Shown: piece by piece, positions 29,941-62,707 of the stretch
Numbering within the stretch: the first letter of the stretch is position 1
Layout of the letters: every line of letters starts with the position of its first letter
Sequence record: PZ476263.1
From: a phage
Length of the DNA stretch: 64,000 nt
Strand: one strand, 5' to 3'
The notes under the pieces: model-generated
Told to the model about the DNA's origin: nothing
The model's database searches: none
Seen by the model: the letters and a program-made list of their open reading frames with translations, nothing else
Made by a program: the position numbers and the translations under genes

Positions 29941-32900
29941 ATGTCTGAATACAATGATAAGGTCGTAGAGGCTTTTGTTACTGCCCCAGATCCTGTCGTT
30001 ACTACCAGTGGTGGTGGAGTTATTTTTAACGGTATTGAAACTCGTGATACCGTTTCTACCACTTTGGTTGGTGATGGTACTGTAACTGCGCCTCTTCAAG
30101 CACAAATTCGTGTTTCTCGTCGAGCAGGTAACGCCCTTCAGGTAGTTCAAACTGAAAGTGAACAAGGTCTGTTTGCATCGGCAGGCGAAGCTAAAGTTTC
30201 CGTATCTGCTGTCAACGTTGCAAAATATGTTACAGCTGAAGAAGCTGCAAGTCAAGGTGATGCTGCACTGGAAGGTGTTTTAGTAGAACCTGTTCACTTA
30301 ACCACCACAGCAGCAACATCTGGATTACAGATCAGTGCAGATCCTCTGACTGGTAAAAAATCTCGAATCGGTCTTGTTGTTTCACCTGCTGCCACTAACG
30401 CACTGTCTTTAGAAGAAGATGGTTTGTCTGTTAAAGTGTCTCCAGCTATTGATAACAACATTCAAGTTCGTGAAGGTGCTCTGTATGTTCCTCCGAGCAA
30501 TGCAGAAGTATCTCCTGATTCCGACAACAAGCTTGAATTACGTTCCAATGGTCTTTATGTTGCCACTGTAAAAGGTGACAAAGGCGACCAGGGTGAACAA
30601 GGCCCAGCGGGTCCTCAAGGTGAAGTAGGTCCAGAAGGTCCGCAAGGTCCGGCTGGAGAGAAGGGTGACCAAGGTGAACAAGGACCTCAAGGTGACAAAG
30701 GGGATCAGGGCGTAGCTGGTCCAGCAGGTCCACAAGGTGCTCGTGGTCCAGAAGGTCCTCGTGGTGAAACTGGCTTGGGCATTAATGTTCTGAGTTCTTT
30801 AGACTCGGAAGATCAGTTGCCTTCTGTTGTTGATTTACAGAATGGTGATACCTATGTAATCGGACAAAACTTCTTTACTGTCATCACTGAAGGTGGTGTA
30901 AAACAGTGGAGAAATATTGGTAACTTCGCAGGCCCAGAAGGTCAATCTGCATTTGAAGTTGCTGAGACTGCTGGATTTGTTGGTACTGTAGATGATTGGT
31001 TAGCAAGTCTTCGCGGTGCTGATGGTATCGGTCTTCAGCTTCTTGGCGCTCTGCGTCGTGTGGAAGACTTACCGGAAGAAGGCAACCGACAAGGCGATGC
31101 TTATATCATTCAGGAACAAATGTATGTTTGGACTGGTGATGTAGATCGTTGGCAGATTGTAGGTCAGATTGGCCCAGAAGGTCGTTCTGCTTATCAGGTT
31201 TGGTTGGCGAATGGCAATACTGGATCACAAGTTGACTTCCTTAACTCACTCAAGGGTGAAAAGGGAGATACGGGTGAGCAAGGTCCTCAGGGGGAAAGGG
31301 GCGAAGACGGTAAAAACGCAAACGCAATCAACATCCTTGGTAGTGTAGCTGATGAAGCTTCTCTTCCAGAAGGCGCTGATGCAGGTGATGCCTACCTTAT
31401 TGGGACTAACGTCTTTGTATCAGACGGCGCTGGTAACTGGGAAAATTTGGGATCTTTCCAAGGCCCACAAGGTGATCAGGGTGTTAAAGGTGACAAAGGC
31501 GATAAGGGAGACAAGGGCGATAAAGGTGATAAAGGTGATGACAACTACACCATTGCTGTTGCTAACGGTTTCGTCGGATCTGTAACTGAATACCTTGCGT
31601 CCATTAAGGGTGAGAAAGGTGATGTAGGTGCAACTGGTCCCCGTGGTCTTACTGGTCCACAGGGTGAACAGGGTCCCGTCGGTGCTGGTCTGAATATTCT
31701 CGGATCTTTCGAGGATGAGTCTGAACTGCCAACTTCTGGAATTACCGAAGGTGATGCCTACCTGATCCAAGGATTCCTTTATATCTTTACTGGAGGTTCT
31801 TTTAAGAACGTTGGTGAAGTTAAGGGTCCTAAAGGAGATCAGGGCGATGTAGGACCTGCGGGTCCACAGGGTGAGCAGGGTATTGCGGGACCACAAGGCC
31901 AGCAAGGTTTAGTTGGACCTGCGGGTCCTCAAGGCGAGACTGGTCCACAAGGCCCAGAAGGTCCAGAAGGTCCTCAAGGTCCTCAAGGAGCGCAGGGTGA
32001 AAAAGGCGATATTGGTAGTGGCCTTATTGCTCGTGGAACTGTTGAAACATCTGTGCAATTGCCTAGTGACGCTGCAATCGGTGATTTTTACGTTGTAACT
32101 TCCGAAGGTATTGGCTATGCTTGGGACGGTTCTGATTGGGTAGCCACAGGATTAGCACAAGGACCTATAGGTCCTGCTGGAGCTGATGGTGCCAAGGGTG
32201 AAAAAGGCGACAAAGGAGATCAAGGAGAAAAAGGCGACGCTGGTACAGGTCTGACTCCGAAAGGTCTTGTTGACACATCTTCTGACTTACCTTCTTCTGC
32301 TGAAGTTGGTGATTTCTACGTAGCTGCTGACACTGGTATTGGTTATGCTTGGGACGGCACTTCTTTTGTAGAGTCCGGCACTGTACGTGGACCACAAGGT
32401 GAAGCGGGTCCTCAGGGCGAAGCAGGTCCAGAAGGTCCGCAAGGCCCTCAGGGTGGAATAGGTCCCGTTGGACCAGAAGGTCCGCAAGGTATCGCTGGCC
32501 CTAAAGGGGATAAAGGTGACGTTGGTAGTGGTTTAATCCCTCGTGGAACAATCCCGACTATGGCAGACCTTCCTTTGACTGGTGAAGTTGGTGACTTTTA
32601 CGTAGCCAATGATACGGGAATCGGCTATGCCTTTAACGGGACTGCTTTTATAGAGTCTGGGGTTGCTCGCGGCCCTCAGGGCGAGAAGGGTGAAACTGGT
32701 GCAGTTGGACCGCAGGGTCCGGTTGGTGCTACTGGTGCAATTGGACCGCAGGGTCCTCAGGGTGCTCAAGGTGAACAGGGCATTCAAGGTGAACGAGGAG
32801 AAATCGGTCCTCAGGGTGAGAAAGGTGACACTGGAGAGCAGGGTCCTCAAGGGGATATCGGTCCAGGGGTTGAGATCATCGGTAAATTCGATAACTCTTC

Positions 32901-33729
32901 CGAACTTCCTTCTACTGGTCAATTAGGTCAAGGTTATCTGATCCAAGGTGATTTCTGGGGATGGACAGGTACTGCTTATGAAAACTTAGGTCGTATTCAA
33001 GGTCCTGTAGGCCCTGTAGGTCCGACTGGTAACCAAGGTCCACAAGGTCCTGTCGGTGTTAAAGGGGATAAAGGTGACCAAGGTACTTTGTGGATTGTAT
33101 TCGCAAGGGATCCTTTGGTAAGTGATGGTCGTGTCAACGACTTCTTCCTGAACTCTTCTACTTTGGAATACTTCCGTAAAACGTCTGCAACTAACTGGGC
33201 TTCCCTCGGATACTTGGGTGGTGGTAACGTTTATGATGCACCTGGGGATGGTAAAGCTTACGTCCGTCAAGATCAGGGCTGGTCTGAATTAACTTACCCT
33301 GTCAATGAAGCACCTACCGATGGCGGTGATTATGTTCGTAAGAATGGTACTTGGAGCACTCTGGTTATTCCGGTAACGGAAGCTCCGCTGGAAGGTGGAT
33401 TCTACGTCCGTGAAAACGGTGAGTGGGTGAAACTCGACAAATACGACTTGCGTGTAATTGCTTCTACTGGTGTGGTTGATGCATCTCAGGCCAACAGCTG
33501 GACTTTGGACGGAACAACCAGTAAGTCCTTGGTGATTAATAACCTTCCCGAAGGCCGAGCAATGACTCTTGTACTGAGATTCACTGGTAACGGTGGAAAC
33601 ATTACTTGGGACTCTAAGATCGCATGGTCTAATGGTACAGCACCTGTGCTGGGAGTTACCCGTACTATCCTGACTCTGTTCTGGGATGGTGAGTTCCTTA
33701 CTGGTACTCAAGCAATGACTGTTGGTTAA
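29941..33729 (+). CDS. collagen-like repeat fiber protein (1262 aa)
   Basis: multiple G-X-Y runs ([25 protein letters not shown]...) alternating with eight ~35-aa modules (LP..G..GD.Y.....G..W); C-terminal triple YVR.NG.W repeats. Confidence 0.7.
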   Translation: MSEYNDKVVEAFVTAPDPVVTTSGGGVIFNGIETRDTVSTTLVGDGTVTAPLQAQIRVSRRAGNALQVVQTESEQGLFASAGEAKVSVSAVNVAKYVTAEEAASQGDAALEGVLVEPVHLTTTAATSGLQISADPLTGKKSRIGLVVSPAATNALSLEEDGLSVKVSPAIDNNIQVREGALYVPPSNAEVSPDSDNKLELRSNGLYVATVKGDKGDQGEQGPAGPQGEVGPEGPQGPAGEKGDQGEQGPQGDKGDQGVAGPAGPQGARGPEGPRGETGLGINVLSSLDSEDQLPSVVDLQNGDTYVIGQNFFTVITEGGVKQWRNIGNFAGPEGQSAFEVAETAGFVGTVDDWLASLRGADGIGLQLLGALRRVEDLPEEGNRQGDAYIIQEQMYVWTGDVDRWQIVGQIGPEGRSAYQVWLANGNTGSQVDFLNSLKGEKGDTGEQGPQGERGEDGKNANAINILGSVADEASLPEGADAGDAYLIGTNVFVSDGAGNWENLGSFQGPQGDQGVKGDKGDKGDKGDKGDKGDDNYTIAVANGFVGSVTEYLASIKGEKGDVGATGPRGLTGPQGEQGPVGAGLNILGSFEDESELPTSGITEGDAYLIQGFLYIFTGGSFKNVGEVKGPKGDQGDVGPAGPQGEQGIAGPQGQQGLVGPAGPQGETGPQGPEGPEGPQGPQGAQGEKGDIGSGLIARGTVETSVQLPSDAAIGDFYVVTSEGIGYAWDGSDWVATGLAQGPIGPAGADGAKGEKGDKGDQGEKGDAGTGLTPKGLVDTSSDLPSSAEVGDFYVAADTGIGYAWDGTSFVESGTVRGPQGEAGPQGEAGPEGPQGPQGGIGPVGPEGPQGIAGPKGDKGDVGSGLIPRGTIPTMADLPLTGEVGDFYVANDTGIGYAFNGTAFIESGVARGPQGEKGETGAVGPQGPVGATGAIGPQGPQGAQGEQGIQGERGEIGPQGEKGDTGEQGPQGDIGPGVEIIGKFDNSSELPSTGQLGQGYLIQGDFWGWTGTAYENLGRIQGPVGPVGPTGNQGPQGPVGVKGDKGDQGTLWIVFARDPLVSDGRVNDFFLNSSTLEYFRKTSATNWASLGYLGGGNVYDAPGDGKAYVRQDQGWSELTYPVNEAPTDGGDYVRKNGTWSTLVIPVTEAPLEGGFYVRENGEWVKLDKYDLRVIASTGVVDASQANSWTLDGTTSKSLVINNLPEGRAMTLVLRFTGNGGNITWDSKIAWSNGTAPVLGVTRTILTLFWDGEFLTGTQAMTVG

Positions 33730-34419: not shown

Positions 34420-36036
<1,617 letters not shown>

Positions 36037-36074: not shown

Positions 36075-37658
36075 ATGACGAATTCTGTAGTAGGTATGGC
36101 AGGTCACAATAATGGTGTATTTTATGGATACTCTCTTTATGACTTGGAGCAAAAAAGAAAGATAGCCTTTAAAGATTTAACTAAGGGTGACTCAGGGGCG
36201 AAGGGCGATAAGGGTGATCCTGGTCCAGAAGGTCCACAAGGTGATAAAGGAGATACCGGAGAGCAAGGCCCTGTAGGACCTCAAGGTCCTGCTGGTGCAC
36301 CAGGGCAACAAGGTGTGCCTGGTGAAAGAGGACCTCAAGGTCCCGAAGGCCCACAAGGCCCTCAAGGCCCAATTGGTCCCGAAGGACCAGTAGGACCAAT
36401 CGGCTCCCAAGGTCCCGAAGGTCCTAAAGGAGAGCAAGGTGAACAAGGCCCTTCTGGATCTCAAGGTCCTCAAGGATTAAAAGGGGATACAGGGGCACAA
36501 GGACCTCAAGGTCCCGTTGGACCCAGAGGAGAGACAGGTGCAACAGGACCTGTTGGACCTAAAGGGGACACAGGCCCAACAGGTCCAAAAGGAGAAACGG
36601 GTGAACAGGGACCCATTGGTCCGCAAGGACCTAAGGGTGATACAGGTCCCGTGGGTCCTGCAAGCTTAACCTTCAGAGGTTTCTATGAACCTCTTGAAGA
36701 ATACAACGAAAAGGATACAGTAGCTTATAATGGTTCTACTTATTTTGCGTTAAGAACCAGTACAGGAGCAACACCGGATATTTCTCCCGATGACTGGGCA
36801 TTACTTGCAGCTGAAGGTGCAGTTGGACCACAAGGACCTATGGGACCAGAGGGTCCGCAAGGTATCGCTGGTGCTCAAGGTCAGGAAGGCCCTATAGGAC
36901 CGCAAGGTGAACAGGGTCCGGTTGGACCTGTTGGCCCACAAGGCCCACAAGGTCCTGCGGGTCAGGAAGGAATAGAAGGCCCTCAGGGACCTCAAGGAGA
37001 AGAAGGCCCTATGGGACCTCAGGGACCACAAGGGATTGTAGGACCAACAGGTCCACAAGGCCCTCAAGGCCCCAAAGGGGACACTGGTGCAGTTGGACCA
37101 CAAGGTCCTCAAGGCCAACAAGGTCTTGATGGTCCACAAGGCCCTGCTGGTCCGCAAGGCGAAAGAGGTGTTACTGGACTAACCGGACCCCAAGGTCCCA
37201 AGGGTGATATCGGCCCTGTGGGTCCGGCTGGCCCTCAAGGTAAGGATGGTAATTCTTACACTATCTACAACTGGGGCAACATATCAACGGGCTATGGTGA
37301 GATGGTAATACCTGGTGTTACTAACACAGTATTCAGAGTGAGACGAGTAGGAACCACATTAGAATACAGTGTACTTAGTAAAGGTGGTGCGAATAGATAC
37401 CTTGACTTCCATACCATAATTCCAGCCCCCTCTACAGGGGGCGCTGTAATTATCCAATCAGGAAATACAACATTGACATCCTCCAGCTCTTTAAATGTTG
37501 TTACATCTGCACCTCCTGGTCTTGGTTTTCGACCAATATTCATCTCTTTAAAAGAGTGGGGAGATAGGGCAATAGTAACCATAGAGGTTTTCCACACAGG
37601 TAGAAGTGGAGATTCCAGTTACCCAATACATGTTCGTATGCTAACGACGAAGTATTGA
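36075..37658 (+). CDS. collagen-like fiber protein, paralog B (527 aa)
   Basis: N-terminal [25 protein letters not shown] runs, central [12 protein letters not shown] module, different C-terminal domain. Confidence 0.65.
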
Positions 37659-40007: not shown

Positions 40008-41423
40008 ATGGCTTATGAAGATAAGGTAGTTGACGTCGAGGTAACTCTTGGTACTCAGCCTATTGATACCGTAGGGTTCGAAACCCCGATGTTCTTAGCA
40101 GTTCATAATAACTTCCCAGAACGTGTACGTTTTTATGGATCATTGGAAAGTCTGGTAGGTGATGGTTTTGCAGTTGGTTCAGCTGCTTATCAGTTTGCCT
40201 CGAACGTATTTGCAGGTTCTTTTGCTGCAAGTCTGGTAGGTATCGGACGTATGTCTCTGGCAAGTTCTCGTGTAGATTTTACCGGAACAGTCAATGAAGA
40301 ACGCGTCGTTGTAAATATTACCATCAATGGTACTATTAAAGCAGTAACTATTTCGCTGCAAGTTGGAAACACCCCAGGTCAAGTTGCTACCGCTCTTGCA
40401 ACTGGTATTAATGATGATGTAGACCTCGCAGGTCGAGTTGTTGCTACTGTAGAAAACAGCACTGTTGTAGTGATCCAGTCTGCTGAGAAAGTTAGCATCG
40501 GGAAAGGTGAGGGCACTTATAAGATCGTAAACACCTCTGCTGAAACTGTTGCTACTGTATTGCCTCAGGTTCTGGCTGAAAACCACAACTGGTACTTCCT
40601 GTCCCATGAACAGCGTTCTGATGCAGATATCGTTGCTGCTGCCGAATTTGCTCAGGCAAACTACAAACTGCACGTTTATAACTCCAGCGATTCTGATGCA
40701 CTGGCGGCTGCTAACCAAAGCACCTCTGTCTTTGACACGCTGAAATCTTTGGGTTATAACTCCCTCGGGACCTACGACAAAGATGCAGATGTGGAATATA
40801 CCGAAGGTTCTGTAATCGGTGCAATGGCTGCAAACGATCCTTCTTACGGTGACTCTATCCACCTGAAGACAATGCCTGGTATGGCTCCTTCTACCATCTC
40901 TGAAACTCAGCGTATGAACGCATGGGGACGTAACGCAAACATTTATCGTGCAATGTACGGTACTAACAGCTATATCGAAGGTCGTACTTCCAGCGGTCAG
41001 TATGTTGACGTTATTCGCTTCTCCCACTGGCTGAAGTTCCGTATGGAAGAATCTGTATTTGGTTACATGAAGCGTCGTTCTGATCAAGGTCAGTCCATGA
41101 AGATGAGTGATGAAGATCTTCCGGTTCTGCGTTCTATCCTGTTTAACAACCCAATCAACATCGGTATTCGTAACGGTGGTATCTTGACGGGTTATGACAG
41201 TGTGAACCGTGTAAGCTACGATCCGATTATCACCATCCCACGTCGTGCTGAAATCCCGACTAACGATTTAGCTAACCGTATCCTGCGTGATGTTAAAGTT
41301 GAAGTAGTTTACAACAACTCTCTGCATTACGTCAAAATCCGCGCTGCTGTGGTTCTTGATCGTCCGGCAAATACGACTCAGAGCACCCAAGCTCCTTTCT
41401 CTAACTCTTCTGTAGGGGTGTAA
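40008..41423 (+). CDS. tail sheath protein (putative, P2 FI-like position)
   Basis: 471 aa gene followed by 160-aa tube-size gene, frameshifted chaperone pair and tape measure. Confidence 0.5.
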   Translation: MAYEDKVVDVEVTLGTQPIDTVGFETPMFLAVHNNFPERVRFYGSLESLVGDGFAVGSAAYQFASNVFAGSFAASLVGIGRMSLASSRVDFTGTVNEERVVVNITINGTIKAVTISLQVGNTPGQVATALATGINDDVDLAGRVVATVENSTVVVIQSAEKVSIGKGEGTYKIVNTSAETVATVLPQVLAENHNWYFLSHEQRSDADIVAAAEFAQANYKLHVYNSSDSDALAAANQSTSVFDTLKSLGYNSLGTYDKDADVEYTEGSVIGAMAANDPSYGDSIHLKTMPGMAPSTISETQRMNAWGRNANIYRAMYGTNSYIEGRTSSGQYVDVIRFSHWLKFRMEESVFGYMKRRSDQGQSMKMSDEDLPVLRSILFNNPINIGIRNGGILTGYDSVNRVSYDPIITIPRRAEIPTNDLANRILRDVKVEVVYNNSLHYVKIRAAVVLDRPANTTQSTQAPFSNSSVGV

Positions 41424-42780: not shown

Positions 42781-45213
42781 ATGGCTGTAGAAGTAATTGC
42801 TACAACAAAGAACCGTGTCATATTTGAAACTGACAAAGGGTCTTATAAAAAGGCTCGTGATGAGATAAAGAAACTCTCTAACGAGTGGAAGAAGGCATCT
42901 ACGGAAGCCACCACCACATCTAGAAACTCTCCATCTGAGGTTTACAAGAAGTCTGCAAGAGAGATGCGACTTGTAAGTAAAAGATTGGCGGAGACTAGAA
43001 AACGGGAAGAGAAGCGAGAATCGGATTACAGGATCGCACTTGCCAAAAAGGAAGCGAAAGCAAAAGAGGCGGTAGCCAAAATATCTGCTTCGAGAATAAA
43101 ACAGCAGGTAAAAAGCTTAACTGCTGCAAGCCCTGGTTCAGCAGAGATGAGAAGATTCTACCAGCAGCAAGAAAAGGCTGCAAGAGCTGCATCGCGTTCT
43201 GCAAATAGGGCTGCTACGCCATTGCCACCTTTTAATGTTCAACGTGTGGAAGCTGCAAACCAGTTACTTTCCCGTGGACAACAACAGGCAGGTTCTGGTA
43301 TTGTTGGAGATCCAAATAGTCGTTTCCGCCCTGAACTGATTGCTGCACAGAACCGAGCTATGCAACAAAGTTCTCGTAATCAGGAAAAGTTACGTAAACA
43401 GCAAACAAGGGAAGAAGAAAGGCAGAAGATCAATGCTGCAAGGGCTGCTGCAAGGGTAGATGATGTTTCTGCACAACAGCGTATTCGATTAAGTTCTAAA
43501 TATGGAAGAGGCTACGCAGGTGCTTTGGGTAAAGATTCCGAAGGAAGGGGGATTGAGGATCTTAACAGACAATTCCGCGCTGGGACATTAACATCGGGTC
43601 AATACAGACAGAGCATCCAAGCATTAGAAAGACAGTTTAGAAGTGCCCAAGCAAGTGCAGGATCGTTTTCCTCTACTTTGGGGGATATTCGTTCTGGTCT
43701 TGTAAGTGCAACAGCAGCATATAGCGTATTCGCCGCAGGTGCTTCTGTTACTAGACAAGGACAATTCTTTGAAGGTATAAACGCCACCAGTTTACTTATT
43801 TCTGACTCTGCGGAAGAAGCAGGTCAAAGGGTTAAATTTGTAAGAGAAGAAGCTTATCGTTTAGGTCTTAACTTAAAAGAGGCATCTCAAGGCTTCACTC
43901 AGTTAGCGATTTCTGCCGAAGGTCAGATTTCAAAATCTGAAACCAATGAATTGTTCAGTGCATTCTCCGAATACTCAACGGCCTTGCAGGTTGATCCTGT
44001 TAGATATCAACGTGGTATTACAGCTATCCAACAGATCCTTGGTAAAGGCCAGGTAATGGCTGAAGAACTTAAAGGTCAGTTGTCGGAAGCGATACCTGGT
44101 TCTCTTCAGGTATTCTTAAAAGCAACTCAAGAGGCTTTTAATGATTCCTCTATAGATGTTGCTAAATTCCTGAAGTTAATGGAAGATGGTGAATTAAAAG
44201 CTTCTAAAATTATACCTCTTGTTGGTAAATATTATGCTGAGGCTGCTAGAAGGGGCGGTGCTCTTGATAAAGCTCTTGAAAGCAACCGAGTAGCTTATCA
44301 ACGTCTAAACCAGACTTTTGCAGAGTTCCAGAACAGAATATTCCAGGGTGGATTTGGAGAACAATTAACCCGAGTTTTCAACAATTTAGCCACTATTTTG
44401 TCAAGTAACGGTAATGTTGCAACAACTATCGGAAGATTCTTTGGTAATGTAATCGAAGGTTTTACCGACATGGTTCTCGAAGTCCATGACAACCTGGTTC
44501 TTCTTGATCGTGTCGTTACTTACTACTTCAAGAAGATTGGTGTAGAAGGTGATACCTTGAGACAGGTTTTCGACTGGGGTTCTTATCTACTCGGTATCGG
44601 CCTGTTTATCGGGGGTCTGACTAAGGTGTTTAACATCTTAGCGAAGATCGCAGGATTGAAAGGGGCCTTAAAAGAAATCCGTGGAACTCTCGGTGGTGAC
44701 CTTGCTACTGGTGGGAAAACCGGAACAGGTGCTAACACAACGGCTTCCGGCGGCGCAGGTACTGGTGGTACTACAGGAAAAACCAGTGTCGCAGGTAGAT
44801 TCAGCCAGTTGGGCAAACTCGGTAAGTTATTTGGCCTTGGTACGCTTTATTCCGCAGGATCAGAGATTAATGACCGCTTTATTCAGAGTGGTGAAAATCG
44901 TCTTGCAAATGCTGGGGTTGATACAGAAGCTTTCAAAAACACCTATGGCGTGACTCCGCAACCTGTAGGGCTTACGGATGTATTCAGAGAACTATTTGGC
45001 GGTTCTAAGAATATCACTGTAGATACTAATGCGATAAGCACCCCATCGGGAATAAGACCTTCTGGATTCCCTCTGACCGCTCCGCAAGAGCCACCTGAAG
45101 GTAAGATCACTGTTGAGATTAAGGCTGGCGAAATTCGTCAGTACATCAAAGCAGTTGTTGATGAAGAAAATAGATTCAATATCAACTTACTTACTCAGGG
45201 CGGTAACCAATAA
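42781..45213 (+). CDS. tail tape measure protein
   Basis: 810 aa, Ala/Gln/Arg-rich helical N-terminal half, Gly-rich hydrophobic segment, position after chaperones. Confidence 0.6.
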   Translation: MAVEVIATTKNRVIFETDKGSYKKARDEIKKLSNEWKKASTEATTTSRNSPSEVYKKSAREMRLVSKRLAETRKREEKRESDYRIALAKKEAKAKEAVAKISASRIKQQVKSLTAASPGSAEMRRFYQQQEKAARAASRSANRAATPLPPFNVQRVEAANQLLSRGQQQAGSGIVGDPNSRFRPELIAAQNRAMQQSSRNQEKLRKQQTREEERQKINAARAAARVDDVSAQQRIRLSSKYGRGYAGALGKDSEGRGIEDLNRQFRAGTLTSGQYRQSIQALERQFRSAQASAGSFSSTLGDIRSGLVSATAAYSVFAAGASVTRQGQFFEGINATSLLISDSAEEAGQRVKFVREEAYRLGLNLKEASQGFTQLAISAEGQISKSETNELFSAFSEYSTALQVDPVRYQRGITAIQQILGKGQVMAEELKGQLSEAIPGSLQVFLKATQEAFNDSSIDVAKFLKLMEDGELKASKIIPLVGKYYAEAARRGGALDKALESNRVAYQRLNQTFAEFQNRIFQGGFGEQLTRVFNNLATILSSNGNVATTIGRFFGNVIEGFTDMVLEVHDNLVLLDRVVTYYFKKIGVEGDTLRQVFDWGSYLLGIGLFIGGLTKVFNILAKIAGLKGALKEIRGTLGGDLATGGKTGTGANTTASGGAGTGGTTGKTSVAGRFSQLGKLGKLFGLGTLYSAGSEINDRFIQSGENRLANAGVDTEAFKNTYGVTPQPVGLTDVFRELFGGSKNITVDTNAISTPSGIRPSGFPLTAPQEPPEGKITVEIKAGEIRQYIKAVVDEENRFNINLLTQGGNQ

Positions 45214-58778: not shown

Positions 58779-58809
58779 AAAGGCTCCCAAAAGGGAGCCT
58801 TTATTTTTA
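58779..58809. terminator. bidirectional intrinsic terminator between convergent transcription units
   Basis: AGGCTCCC-aaaa-GGGAGCCT flanked by A-run upstream and T-run downstream. Confidence 0.65.
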
Positions 58810-60055: not shown

Positions 60056-60442
60056 TTACAAATAAACACGTTTAGTTTTAGAATCCACACCCTCAAAAAG
60101 TTCATTGATAATGTTTAAATCTTTGATAAAGCGAACAGTAAAGTCCTCATCTTTCAATGCTCGTAAACGGTCACGTTTTACAATCTTAGGTTCACCGTCA
60201 TCATAATTCAAAACATCAGTTAGATCAAAGAGAGTGATCGTAATTTTTGCGTAAGTTTCCTTATCTATTTTTTGGTTCTTGTCAATCCCATAGACTGACG
60301 CAATTTCAAGTTCGTCTGTATCTTTACTGTATACAATGTTGGTATTCATTGCATACTCTACATCAGTCCATTTTGTGATATTACGAGTTGCAGATTTAAT
60401 TTTCCAACTATCGTCTAATTCGTATTTATCAAAAACGCTCAT
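60056..60442 (-). CDS. hypothetical protein
   Basis: 128 aa ORF. Confidence 0.35.
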   Translation of the reverse strand: MSVFDKYELDDSWKIKSATRNITKWTDVEYAMNTNIVYSKDTDELEIASVYGIDKNQKIDKETYAKITITLFDLTDVLNYDDGEPKIVKRDRLRALKDEDFTVRFIKDLNIINELFEGVDSKTKRVYL

Positions 60443-60498: not shown

Positions 60499-60942
60499 TC
60501 AATACTCTGCGCGAGGTTTAACTACACCAGCTTTAGAAATTGGAAGCTCATCTGCATCTTTACCACGAAGACTATTGATCCATTCCCGTTCTGTCATGAC
60601 ATATTCGTGGTTGTCCTCTTTTGCTAGGCGAACATAAATTTCATAAGCTGACTCTCCGACGGGTCCCATATTACCTCGATCACCTTGTGGACCAGATAAA
60701 ATCTTTTCTACCTGTGCTTTTTCAACGACAGGTTTTGATTTGTATAGCGACCAAATCAGCAGGCCAGTCCAAATAGCCAGACCCGCAAAAGGGTAAATCG
60801 ACAATACAAGTCCCAACAAAGAAAGGATTAAAATAATGTGTTTGTTAAGATGGTCCCGCTTATAAGCGATAACTACAGGAACAAACCAGATCGCCAATAC
60901 AATTAAAGACAGAAAAAGAAAAATTACTATTGCAACATCCAT
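60499..60942 (-). CDS. membrane-anchored protein carrying a short collagen-like/fiber motif
   Basis: two N-terminal TM helices then GPQGDRGNMGPVGESAYEIYV...WINSLRG, the same motif found in the 1262-aa fiber. Confidence 0.45.
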   Translation of the reverse strand: MDVAIVIFLFLSLIVLAIWFVPVVIAYKRDHLNKHIILILSLLGLVLSIYPFAGLAIWTGLLIWSLYKSKPVVEKAQVEKILSGPQGDRGNMGPVGESAYEIYVRLAKEDNHEYVMTEREWINSLRGKDADELPISKAGVVKPRAEY

Positions 60943-60957
60943 AATGACCTCCTCAGA

Positions 60958-61161
60958 TTAATCGCTTAAAGTAACAGTATCGAAAAACACATCCCGCATC
61001 CACTCTTCAGCGGGACGAATGTAATAACCAGTTTTACCTAGAGATTGGTAATATTTTAAAATCTCTTTGGCAATATCTTTAGTCAAACCTGCCGCTACAA
61101 TACAGCCACCAGGTCCAGAGACTACATGTGTTTTGTATTTATCATTTTTGTTTTTGCTCAT
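60958..61161 (-). CDS. hypothetical protein
   Basis: 67 aa ORF. Confidence 0.3.
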   Translation of the reverse strand: MSKNKNDKYKTHVVSGPGGCIVAAGLTKDIAKEILKYYQSLGKTGYYIRPAEEWMRDVFFDTVTLSD

Positions 61162-61450
61162 TATTCTCTCCCTCTAATTTTTGTTTAAGTTTTTCTGCAT
61201 CCCAACTGTATGAGCTTGGAAGCCCCATTTTAACGTCACTATCTGTAAATGTACATAAAACACCTTTTGCGTCCTGACCCCGTTTAATTATAGAACTATT
61301 ATTATAGTTCGGTTGACTTTTACAAAATTTGTGCAGACTAATAATTTCACTTGGGGTTAAGGATGGTAATTTAGAATAAGAATCTGGTTTTTCATCTTTT
61401 AAATCACAACCTGCAAGAAGAAAAATAAAAGCAACGATTAATTTTTTCAA
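61142..61450 (-). CDS. lipoprotein
   Basis: signal peptide with lipobox LLAGC; 102 aa. Confidence 0.5.
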   Translation of the reverse strand: MKKLIVAFIFLLAGCDLKDEKPDSYSKLPSLTPSEIISLHKFCKSQPNYNNSSIIKRGQDAKGVLCTFTDSDVKMGLPSSYSWDAEKLKQKLEGENNEQKQK

Positions 61451-61597
61451 TTCACGATCCTCCCCAATACTTAAACAATTCTACACATGCGATTGTTGAC
61501 AGTATGAACCATATGGCACTTACAACATTTACATACAGGAATCTACAACCTGCCATAGAAACCATTATAAAGAGGCAGACAAAAGTTTTATAATCAA

Positions 61598-62002
61598 TCA
61601 TTTCTTACTCTCCTTTTTTGATTTTTCGTCTGCATCTACCTGATCTTCCGCCAGACTAATTATCTGATAAACTGTTTCAGGGTTTTGAAGAAACTCTGTA
61701 TATTTCTTGATCCGAACTACGAGTTTTGAACGAACTTTTCTTTCTCTTTCTACTTGCTTGAAGTAATGACCCTTCTGAGTATAAGTCCACGCATAGTAAA
61801 CTGTTTTTGCACGATGGCGGGTTGATTTTAATTTCTCCGCCAGCTCCGTATACGGGTCATTATCTGTGGGACCAAAAAGAAAAATTTGTGCAAAATTCTC
61901 TTTCATAATTTGAGATTCTTCAGGTGTCAGTCGTGGACACTCTTCGGAACCGTACTTAGGACCTTTTACCATTGGTTTTTTAGGATAAACTTTACTATTC
62001 AT
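61598..62002 (-). CDS. hypothetical protein
   Basis: 134 aa ORF. Confidence 0.35.
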   Translation of the reverse strand: MNSKVYPKKPMVKGPKYGSEECPRLTPEESQIMKENFAQIFLFGPTDNDPYTELAEKLKSTRHRAKTVYYAWTYTQKGHYFKQVERERKVRSKLVVRIKKYTEFLQNPETVYQIISLAEDQVDADEKSKKESKK

Positions 62003-62077
62003 ATTAATACCTCACTCCCGTTATGTTACTTTTACTCCGATGTAAGAGGGGTATTATAACCCCTCTCGATTTATTTA

Positions 62078-62707
62078 TCAATCACAACTTGAAGAACTTG
62101 AACCGCTATCATAAGAGCTACTGTCATAAGAGCTGGATGAACTCTCATAAGATGATGAAGAAGAACTTGAAGAACAAGATCGACTAGGTTCATCGCTCGC
62201 CATAACAGCGGCATACGTTCCAATACCTCCTAAAACACCTGCTGTTAATGGTACGTCATTGTTGCTGTTGACTTGAGTTGTTCCAGATCGAGATGTCGAA
62301 TTATGGGCCTCTTTAATAAATTTACGTTTAGCCTTTGGCGGCAGTTTCTTACCTTGTGCATAAACAGGAAGGTCAACTTCTTTCAATTTCTCATCTAAAG
62401 GTTTAGCCTTTTTAGGTGGAACTTTTTCAAGCTTAGAAACTTTAACAGTTTTCTTGTCGATGTTAACTCCAACGACGACTTCATTTTCTTCCAGATCGGT
62501 TTCAAATTTTTGAATCTTCGGCTTAGTGAAACGAACACTTTCAGACTTAACATTTAAACCAACAGCTTCAACATATTCTTTTACCTTTTGGGGAGCCTGA
62601 ACATTGTTCACATACTTCCGAGAATTAATATACTCATCAACTTTTGAAGTTTCGATCTTGACAGGTACAAAAATAGATTTCACCCAAGAAAATAATTTTT
62701 TAAACAT
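62078..62707 (-). CDS. hypothetical protein with Ser-rich C-terminal tail
   Basis: C-terminal SSSSSSSSYESSSSSYDSSSYDSGSSSSS. Confidence 0.4.
   Translation of the reverse strand: MFKKLFSWVKSIFVPVKIETSKVDEYINSRKYVNNVQAPQKVKEYVEAVGLNVKSESVRFTKPKIQKFETDLEENEVVVGVNIDKKTVKVSKLEKVPPKKAKPLDEKLKEVDLPVYAQGKKLPPKAKRKFIKEAHNSTSRSGTTQVNSNNDVPLTAGVLGGIGTYAAVMASDEPSRSCSSSSSSSSYESSSSSYDSSSYDSGSSSSSCD

Follow-up and report, generated by a model that had tools for sequence, protein, structure and literature searches.

A predicted Imm-family membrane protein with a collagen-like run and a fibre-type repeat in the early region of a contractile-tailed phage

The superinfection-exclusion protein Imm of phage T4 has been known for decades, and HK97 gp15 and P22 SieA come from temperate phages; we know of no collagen or fibre-repeat extension in either of the latter two. 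Only in a 2026 preprint was a mechanism put forward for T4 Imm, namely that it binds the tape measure protein; there, the W50 loop of Imm contacts this protein and the R33A substitution weakens Imm (bioRxiv 10.64898/2026.03.06.709160). HK97 gp15 and P22 SieA are likewise phage-encoded inner-membrane blockers of superinfecting genome delivery (for SieA, PMC10883804), and gp15 reportedly acts on the tape measure protein, according to work cited in the same preprint (10.64898/2026.03.06.709160). Here we analyse a gene whose product may belong beside these proteins. It lies at 60499..60942 on the minus strand of a 64,000-nucleotide stretch of phage DNA (sequence record PZ476263.1; "the window" denotes this whole stretch), and its product of 147 amino acids (aa), the window protein, joins a predicted Imm-like membrane anchor to a collagen-like run, one tail-fibre repeat and a conserved C-terminal peptide.

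T5 Llp and phi80/N15 Cor are also phage envelope proteins that prevent superinfection (PMC9586334, PMC11436027), but they are lipoproteins binding FhuA, whereas the window protein has no lipobox and is predicted to have a two-helix inner-membrane anchor. As regards its C-terminal half, small non-collagen modules that interrupt or cap G-X-Y runs are also found in the EPclA-D proteins of enterohaemorrhagic Escherichia coli (EHEC) and in a 1262-aa fibre encoded in the window, and a repeat family of the form SAYE…WLxSLKG is common to collagen-like fibre proteins and the window protein. The collagen and flanking domains of EPclA have been shown to be trimeric (PMC3368898). Collagen-like fibres are, however, large virion proteins, from hundreds up to thousands of residues long, in which repeats are numerous and the ends bind receptors, whereas the window protein has 147 residues, a membrane anchor, a single repeat and a C-terminus unlike that of fibres. 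What appears to be undescribed is the combination; Imm-family proteins and collagen-like fibre repeats are each well documented. No paper on the window protein, an Imm-collagen fusion, a modular stalk or the tip peptide was found in the literature searched.

Membrane anchor and its relation to the Imm family

Translation of the open reading frame (ORF) 60499..60942(-) gives 147 residues followed by a stop, in agreement with the protein sequence quoted in the original prediction. The gene and the parts of its product are as follows.

60499..60942, minus strand: coding sequence of the Imm-like stalked membrane protein (ORF translation; phrog_15593 match, E 1.9e-19; orthologues in Vequintavirinae)
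60948..60954, minus strand: Shine-Dalgarno sequence GAGGAGG, 5 nucleotides (nt) before the ATG, read from the sequence
60739..60942, minus strand: Imm_superinfect-like membrane domain, aa 1-68 (PF14373, phrog_1039, hhalign against T4 Imm, Foldseek, AlphaFold2 (AF2))
60838..60861, minus strand: basic loop KRDHLNKH, aa 28-35 (family motif R-x-H-x-N; R29 aligned to T4 Imm R33)
60694..60738, minus strand: variable linker, aa 69-83 (AF2 predicted local distance difference test score (pLDDT) ~50; within the region of highest nonsynonymous divergence)
60652..60693, minus strand: collagen-like run of five G-X-Y triplets, aa 84-97 (GPQ GDR GNM GPV GE(S); the last residue, S98, is the first of the module)
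60562..60651, minus strand: one tail-fibre repeat of the long variant, SAYEIYVRLAKEDNHEYVMTEREWINSLRG, aa 98-127 (collagen-free hidden Markov model (HMM); predicted helix-loop-helix, AF2)
60502..60561, minus strand: family-specific C-terminal peptide KDADELPISKAGVVKPRAEY, aa 128-147 (conserved in almost all members; disordered in AF2)

The anchor consists of a helix at residues 2-28 kinked at P22, a basic loop at K28-H35 and a hydrophobic stretch at residues 36-67 kinked at P51. In the AF2 model, helices at 2-28 and 34-66 are joined by a loop at 29-33, with pLDDT 81-94 over residues 1-70, and hydropathy agrees with the model on the membrane helices, bearing out the two N-terminal membrane helices that had been noticed before. 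Neither a signal peptide nor a lipobox was found in the window protein, which instead has two hydrophobic helices within the chain, joined by a basic loop. Across the family, R29, H31 and N33 are invariant or nearly so, P22 is invariant, and A26 is invariant or nearly so.

Several comparisons relate this anchor to T4 Imm. The N-terminal 68 residues match PF14373 at 19.4 bits (E 0.001, model positions 1-26 of 42), compared with 58.2 bits for T4 Imm itself, and they match phrog_1039, annotated "immunity to superinfection", with E 2.6e-5; among 22 family members scanned, PF14373 was matched at E<=0.01 in 15 and phrog_1039 in 13. When the family alignment (A2) was compared with T4 Imm using hhalign, a probability of 94.5% (E 7.4e-8) was obtained over 55 columns, with P26, R33 and W55 of T4 Imm paired with P22, R29 and W58. 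A profile of the anchor only (A4) retrieved PF14373-annotated proteins from 5.8e9 sequences with E 5e-6 to 9e-4, and UniRef names the orthologues of phages CR8 and PBES 02 "Superinfection immunity protein". In Foldseek searches against viral models (BFVD), annotated Imm proteins ranked directly after the orthologue, with a TM-score (TMt) of 0.49-0.76. Because the PF14373, phrog_1039, hhalign, profile and Foldseek matches agree, the anchor is, as judged from sequence and model, a divergent Imm-family domain.

The likeness to T4 Imm extends to the general plan: both are small membrane proteins, the window protein being probably an early one like T4 Imm, with two long hydrophobic regions, a basic loop between them and a P..IA..R motif in which R33 corresponds to R29. 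T4 Imm, however, has 83 aa and ends ~18 residues past its membrane domain, whereas the window protein adds ~80 residues comprising the linker, the G-X-Y run, the repeat and the peptide. The N-W-S loop with which T4 Imm contacts the tape measure protein is not conserved in the family of the window protein.

In every family member the N-terminal flank carries no K/R and the inter-helix loop three to five, with a net charge of 0 to +2 over the 15 residues that follow the second hydrophobic stretch. By the positive-inside rule the inter-helix loop is predicted to be cytoplasmic, and given a single membrane crossing by that stretch (31-34 aa), the part that follows the anchor would probably be periplasmic.

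The collagen-like run comprises five perfect G-X-Y triplets (aa 84-98) and is too short for the Pfam Collagen model (PF01391), which does not match the window protein; the model matches 10 of the 22 family members, the window protein not among them.

The repeat shared with fibres and its constraint across the family

The original prediction held that the protein carries the same collagen/fibre motif as the 1262-aa virion fibre (ORF 29941..33729, plus strand). Both fibre strings quoted there are present, at aa 416-439 and 534-557, and a further copy at aa 336-359 was missing from that list. The three fibre copies are as follows.

30946..31017, plus strand: fibre module copy 1, aa 336-359, SAFEVAETAGFVGTVDDWLASLRG (GPEGQSAFEVAETAGFVGTVDDWLASLRG), the short 24-aa variant and the best-matching of the three copies
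31186..31257, plus strand: fibre module copy 2, aa 416-439, SAYQVWLANGNTGSQVDFLNSLKG (BLASTP, module HMM)
31540..31611, plus strand: fibre module copy 3, degenerate, aa 534-557, DNYTIAVANGFVGSVTEYLASIKG (module HMM)

In a single BLASTP comparison of the window protein with the fibre, the two best high-scoring segment pairs (fibre residues 327-362 and 408-443; E 1e-4 and 3e-4) cover the full GPxGxSA(Y/F)E…W(L/I)xSL(K/R)G pattern and not the G-X-Y part alone. A module HMM was built from 525 distinct modules of large fibre-like proteins found by an exhaustive phmmer search, trimmed to S-A-Y…S-L-K/R so that the collagen glycines were excluded; its training proteins were found with the window protein as query, and most of them carry a 24-aa variant rather than the type of the query. 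Against the 1048 six-frame ORFs of the window, this HMM matched only the fibre (three copies, independent E-value 6e-10 to 2e-5) and ORF 60499..60942 (E 2e-5), and the module of the window protein scored 26.7 bits, compared with a maximum of 11.8 among 5000 shuffles. The shared motif therefore goes beyond G-X-Y triplets, since both the protein alignment and the collagen-free HMM cover the flanking segment.

The agreement stops at the protein level. Matches between the gene and the fibre DNA are no longer than 16 nt and all lie within the G-X-Y-coding part, and no DNA similarity to the fibre was found within the module. Recent gene conversion was considered and ruled out, given that only these matches of <=16 nt to the fibre were found when the DNA of the gene was compared with the fibre and the rest of the window.

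Nor does the motif tie the protein to this particular fibre. The module of the window protein is a 30-aa long variant, SAYExYV…(M/L)(T/S)E.(E/D)W(I/L)xSL(K/R)G, whereas the three fibre copies are of the common 24-aa variant and rank 451, 522 and 547 among ~550 modules by similarity to it; the closest are long-variant modules in unrelated large proteins. The long variant also occurs in a Vequintavirinae fibre, that of Erwinia phage Hena1. With phmmer, 219 representative proteins were found at E<=1e-3, mostly large multi-repeat proteins matched at residues 82-131 of the window protein. These comparisons indicate that the SAYE…WLxSLKG module is a widespread phage fibre building block. The two proteins thus share a repeat family, as had been predicted, but the link of the window protein to this phage's own fibre is generic, not specific.

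In the AF2 model the module has helices at 99-109 and 118-125, with pLDDT ~78. G-X-Y triplets occur only N-terminal of it, and after SLRG the collagen pattern gives way to the family-specific peptide. The possibility that the peptide is a degenerate continuation of a fibre was ruled out, as fibres go on with G-X-Y where the family diverges, and no counterpart of the peptide was found in the fibre proteins examined. No Pfam model for the module matched the fibre or the window protein; an assignment of the module to PF03406 (Phage_fiber_2) was not supported, as Collagen and Fibritin_C were the only Pfam matches to the fibre. When solved structures were searched by sequence, neither the module plus tail nor the module region of the fibre returned anything meaningful, and Foldseek against the PDB found nothing. 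The long-variant module (60562..60651, and also in relative P0004) gave weak matches to PF04328 (Sel_put) and to the NCBIfam KCU-star selenoprotein family with E 0.002-0.1, which are not significant and probably reflect chance or a convergent helix-loop-helix pattern.

Orthologues were found by tblastn in about 30 phage records, all Vequintavirinae, including the E. coli A5-4 group, Cronobacter phages CR3, CR8, CR9 and PBES 02, Salmonella phage SSBI34, Acinetobacter phage ABPH49 and phages of Pectobacterium, Enterobacter and Klebsiella; about a dozen further clusters are metagenomic. The orthologues are annotated "hypothetical protein" in the records, and all 22 family members scanned matched phrog_15593. 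In A5-4 and CR9, where wide flanks were examined, the gene lies near the same two downstream genes (128-aa and 385-aa orthologues) beside a converging fibre cluster, with an extra gene of ~215 aa directly after the Imm-like gene in CR9 and some other Certrevirus; the remaining orthologues are at a similar genome position.

Three elements are conserved in the family alignment, namely the Imm-like anchor, a G-X-Y run of 3-13 triplets, and a C-terminal (K/R)DA(D/E)E(I/L)P(L/I)SKxGV followed by basic residues. Between the run and the peptide there are no modules in CR9, Certrevirus and SSBI34, one in the window protein and in relatives P0002, P0011, P0014 and P0030, and two in A5-4 and UPEC06, so that the part between anchor and peptide varies from ~24 to ~114 residues, and the peptide is kept in almost all members with modules present or absent. 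On a tree of the anchors, module-bearing members are scattered beside sisters that have none; modules have therefore been acquired or dropped on several occasions. A nearest-neighbour analysis of the modules did not separate single from multiple acquisition, the sequences being too short.

Selection was assessed from the proportions of nonsynonymous (pN) and synonymous (pS) differences relative to the 68%-identical gene P0002 on metagenomic contig L015, for which pS is saturated throughout (~0.75-0.83). The values of pN are as follows.

Anchor: pN 0.25
Linker and G-X-Y run (aa 69-96): pN 0.44, the highest
Module: pN 0.048
C-terminal tail: pN 0.039

Compared with the 97%-identical P0001 on contig L017, there are four amino-acid differences, two in the linker (aa 69-83) and two in the G-X-Y run; the nonsynonymous changes all fall in these two parts and the synonymous changes all in the module and tail. 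In this lineage, therefore, no part of the protein is more constrained than the module and tail, which are under the strongest purifying selection.

Proposed function and its alternatives

Because the anchor is homologous to T4 Imm and PF14373, superinfection exclusion is our best functional guess. An exclusion factor had been among the roles first suggested, there on the basis of binding the fibre or its receptor; the role stands as a guess by way of the Imm-like anchor, and the basis does not. Taken as a whole, we lean towards a function like that of Imm, in which entry of DNA from a second, related phage would be blocked by a protein with a stalked C-terminal extension.

According to this proposal, the inner-membrane protein would keep the DNA of a further phage, whether of the same kind or a related one, out of the infected cell. 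The membrane domain would act as T4 Imm does, with the tape measure protein bound and channel formation blocked. The G-X-Y run and the repeat probably trimerise the protein and would form a short rod; trimerisation is suggested by collagen-like prophage fibre proteins, which are trimers (PMC3368898). By the positive-inside rule the rod would project into the periplasm, where its conserved tip peptide KDADELPISKAGVV may be the working end that contacts a partner, either the incoming tail tip, the tape measure protein or an envelope component. The stalk would then be a spacer of variable length, made from parts also used in fibres and repeatedly gained, lost and resized. By analogy with T4 Imm, we infer that the tape measure protein of this phage, which has one hydrophobic 19-mer (aa 603-621), could represent the target.

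42781..45213, plus strand: tape measure protein, 810 aa (phrog_5255, E 9e-286; candidate target class, modelled on T4 Imm and gp29)

Several observations weigh against this proposal. The window protein falls below the gathering threshold of PF14373 (27.9 bits), and ten collagen-bearing relatives tested singly are all sub-threshold; nine of them gave 19-26 bits or no match, and P0163, the CR8 orthologue, gave no match. In the hhalign alignment there is a gap opposite T4 N49-W50-S51, where the family has a Pro-containing segment; the missing counterpart of the W50 loop might mean that the target differs in sequence. A run of five triplets is possibly too short to form a stable triple helix, and the AF2 model is of a monomer. 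In two distant relatives a polar turn (PFPDEYK and PFSDQYQ) interrupts the second hydrophobic stretch, which is 31-34 aa long and has a Pro at its centre, so that this stretch could form a hairpin with the stalk in the cytoplasm. Scans of the window protein with NCBIfam and PADLOC found nothing, and no functional study of any family member was found in the literature searched.

A more specific version of the exclusion reading is possible but tentative. The family would form a sub-class of trimeric Imm-type proteins whose periplasmic rod places the tip where it would intercept the tail tip, or the tape measure protein with its three-fold symmetry, ahead of the membrane, with rod length tuned in an arms race through exchange of parts with fibre genes. 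An Imm core with a variable collagen stalk and a conserved tip offers a natural handle on which part recognises what. Collagen and fibre-repeat parts, usually confined to virion fibres, are here reused in a non-structural membrane protein, and in cocktails of Vequintavirinae-type phages the gene is a candidate for what makes related phages exclude one another.

An Imm-type fold may also serve a different job, namely envelope remodelling, lysis timing in a holin- or antiholin-like manner, or a membrane tether that alters periplasmic architecture, with the trimeric stalk and conserved tail binding a component of the host envelope, for example peptidoglycan or a protein of the periplasm or outer membrane, and not an incoming phage. 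PF14373 is large and T4 Imm is its only tested member, and T4 Imm itself is reportedly holin-like and affects lysis inhibition (review PMC6832632). Two putative lipoprotein or membrane genes (61142..61450 and 61452..61601) stand directly upstream in one early-type unit, and the conserved tail is unlike any phage structural protein examined. On the other hand, no lysis genes were recognised among the neighbours, which are all of unknown function, and the sole experimentally characterised homologue is a superinfection-exclusion protein. We regard such a role as rather unlikely, though likelier than the other alternatives.

It is improbable that the protein is directed at fibres, co-trimerising with or binding fibre chains either of its own phage, as a membrane-tethered assembly or nucleation factor, or of a co-infecting phage, as a poison subunit or decoy. 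Its module does belong to the same repeat family as the fibre modules, phrog_19976 ("tail assembly protein") matches residues 81-140 with E 1.6e-5, and if the second hydrophobic stretch were a hairpin, the stalk would lie in the cytoplasm, where fibres fold. However, the modules of the phage's own fibre are among the least similar, and close relatives have no module or 3-10 generic triplets only, with anchor and tail kept. Fibres lack the tail, the element conserved most strongly, and early-type expression signals are ill-suited to late fibre assembly. A decoy for the fibre or its receptor, as first proposed, is unlikely for further reasons: the module is found in fibre shafts and not in receptor-binding ends, the CR9 orthologue lacks a module, and a protein predicted to be held in the inner membrane by two helices, with neither signal peptide nor lipobox, cannot mask a surface receptor.

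The remaining suggestion, a recombination remnant in which a piece of a fibre gene was accidentally fused to a membrane ORF and has no function of its own, could draw on G-X-Y-coding DNA as microhomology for illegitimate recombination and on the scattered placing of modules in the tree of the family as evidence that such events occur, but it is hardly credible, as the strong constraint on module and tail (pN 0.04-0.05 against pS ~0.75-0.83) excludes a functionless remnant, the ORF is intact with a strong Shine-Dalgarno sequence, the locus is kept in ~30 phage genomes and in metagenomic contigs, and the module has no DNA similarity to the fibre.

Expression context and neighbouring genes

The window covers the structural/early-junction region of a contractile-tailed phage, with a sheath gene at 40008..41423, several fibre genes and genes for the baseplate. 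Small ORFs on the minus strand form a run that includes the gene, and three sites resembling the sigma-70 consensus (11-12 of 12 positions) were found upstream on the same strand in a consensus scan. The run is ended by a hairpin at 58779-58802 that parts it from the plus-strand tail genes; the promoter and terminator sites are pattern matches.

62053..62081, minus strand: nearest upstream sigma-70-type promoter-like site, a candidate early promoter for the unit to which the gene belongs (TTGATA-17-TATAAT, 11/12; a consensus-scan match, which is not evidence of function)
58779..58802, no strand assigned: bidirectional intrinsic-terminator-like hairpin between the late (plus) and early (minus) arms

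As the minus-strand run lies behind sigma-70-like sites and is ended by a bidirectional terminator-like hairpin, the gene is probably expressed early, from host-type promoters, which is in keeping with the early-arm membrane protein of the original prediction.

Directly upstream, within the early-type unit of the gene, are two small ORFs resembling envelope proteins. The first, 61142..61450(-), encodes 102 aa with a lipobox at its N-terminus (MKKLIVAFIFLLAGC) and is a putative lipoprotein; the second, 61452..61601(-), encodes a hydrophobic protein of 49 aa that contains …VSMAGC…. They belong to phrog_15849 and phrog_22594, respectively, both of unknown function, and neither has a PADLOC match. 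Together with the Imm-like gene, the two ORFs may form a small envelope-modifying cluster. Directly downstream, 60056..60442(-) encodes a 128-aa protein assigned to DUF7325 (PF24011) from the precomputed annotation of its counterparts on contigs L015, L016 and L017. This gene adjoins the Imm-like gene in A5-4 and on the metagenomic contigs, whereas in CR9 one other gene separates the two.

As regards the fibres, residues 1081-1119 of the large fibre (29941..33729, plus strand) match Fibritin_C (Pfam, E 4.8e-8), a trimerisation element, ~140 residues before the C-terminus. After this gene come two collagen-rich, fibre-like genes, 34420..36036(+) and 36075..37658(+), which encode 538 and 527 aa (phrog_5073); the SAYE…WLxSLKG module was found in neither.

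A megablast search with the 2.3-kb region against 50,697 phage records (INPHARED) gave no match. At the protein level the 1262-aa fibre is 75% identical to that of its nearest relatives, the Vequintavirinae E. coli phages A5-4, W70, A73 and UPEC06, and the gene order of the window agrees with that of the A5-4 group. The same early-region gene order is found on the metagenomic contigs L017 (Logan SRR19226112) and L015 (ENA ERZ28615897), whose Imm-like proteins are 97% and 68% identical to the window protein, respectively. The window probably represents an unsequenced species or genus of the A5-4 group. Further into the early region, 62078..62707(-) encodes a 209-aa protein of phrog_13005 (unknown function) with a long low-complexity, serine-rich C-terminal tail, SSSSSSSSYESSSSSYDSSSYDSGSSSSSCD.

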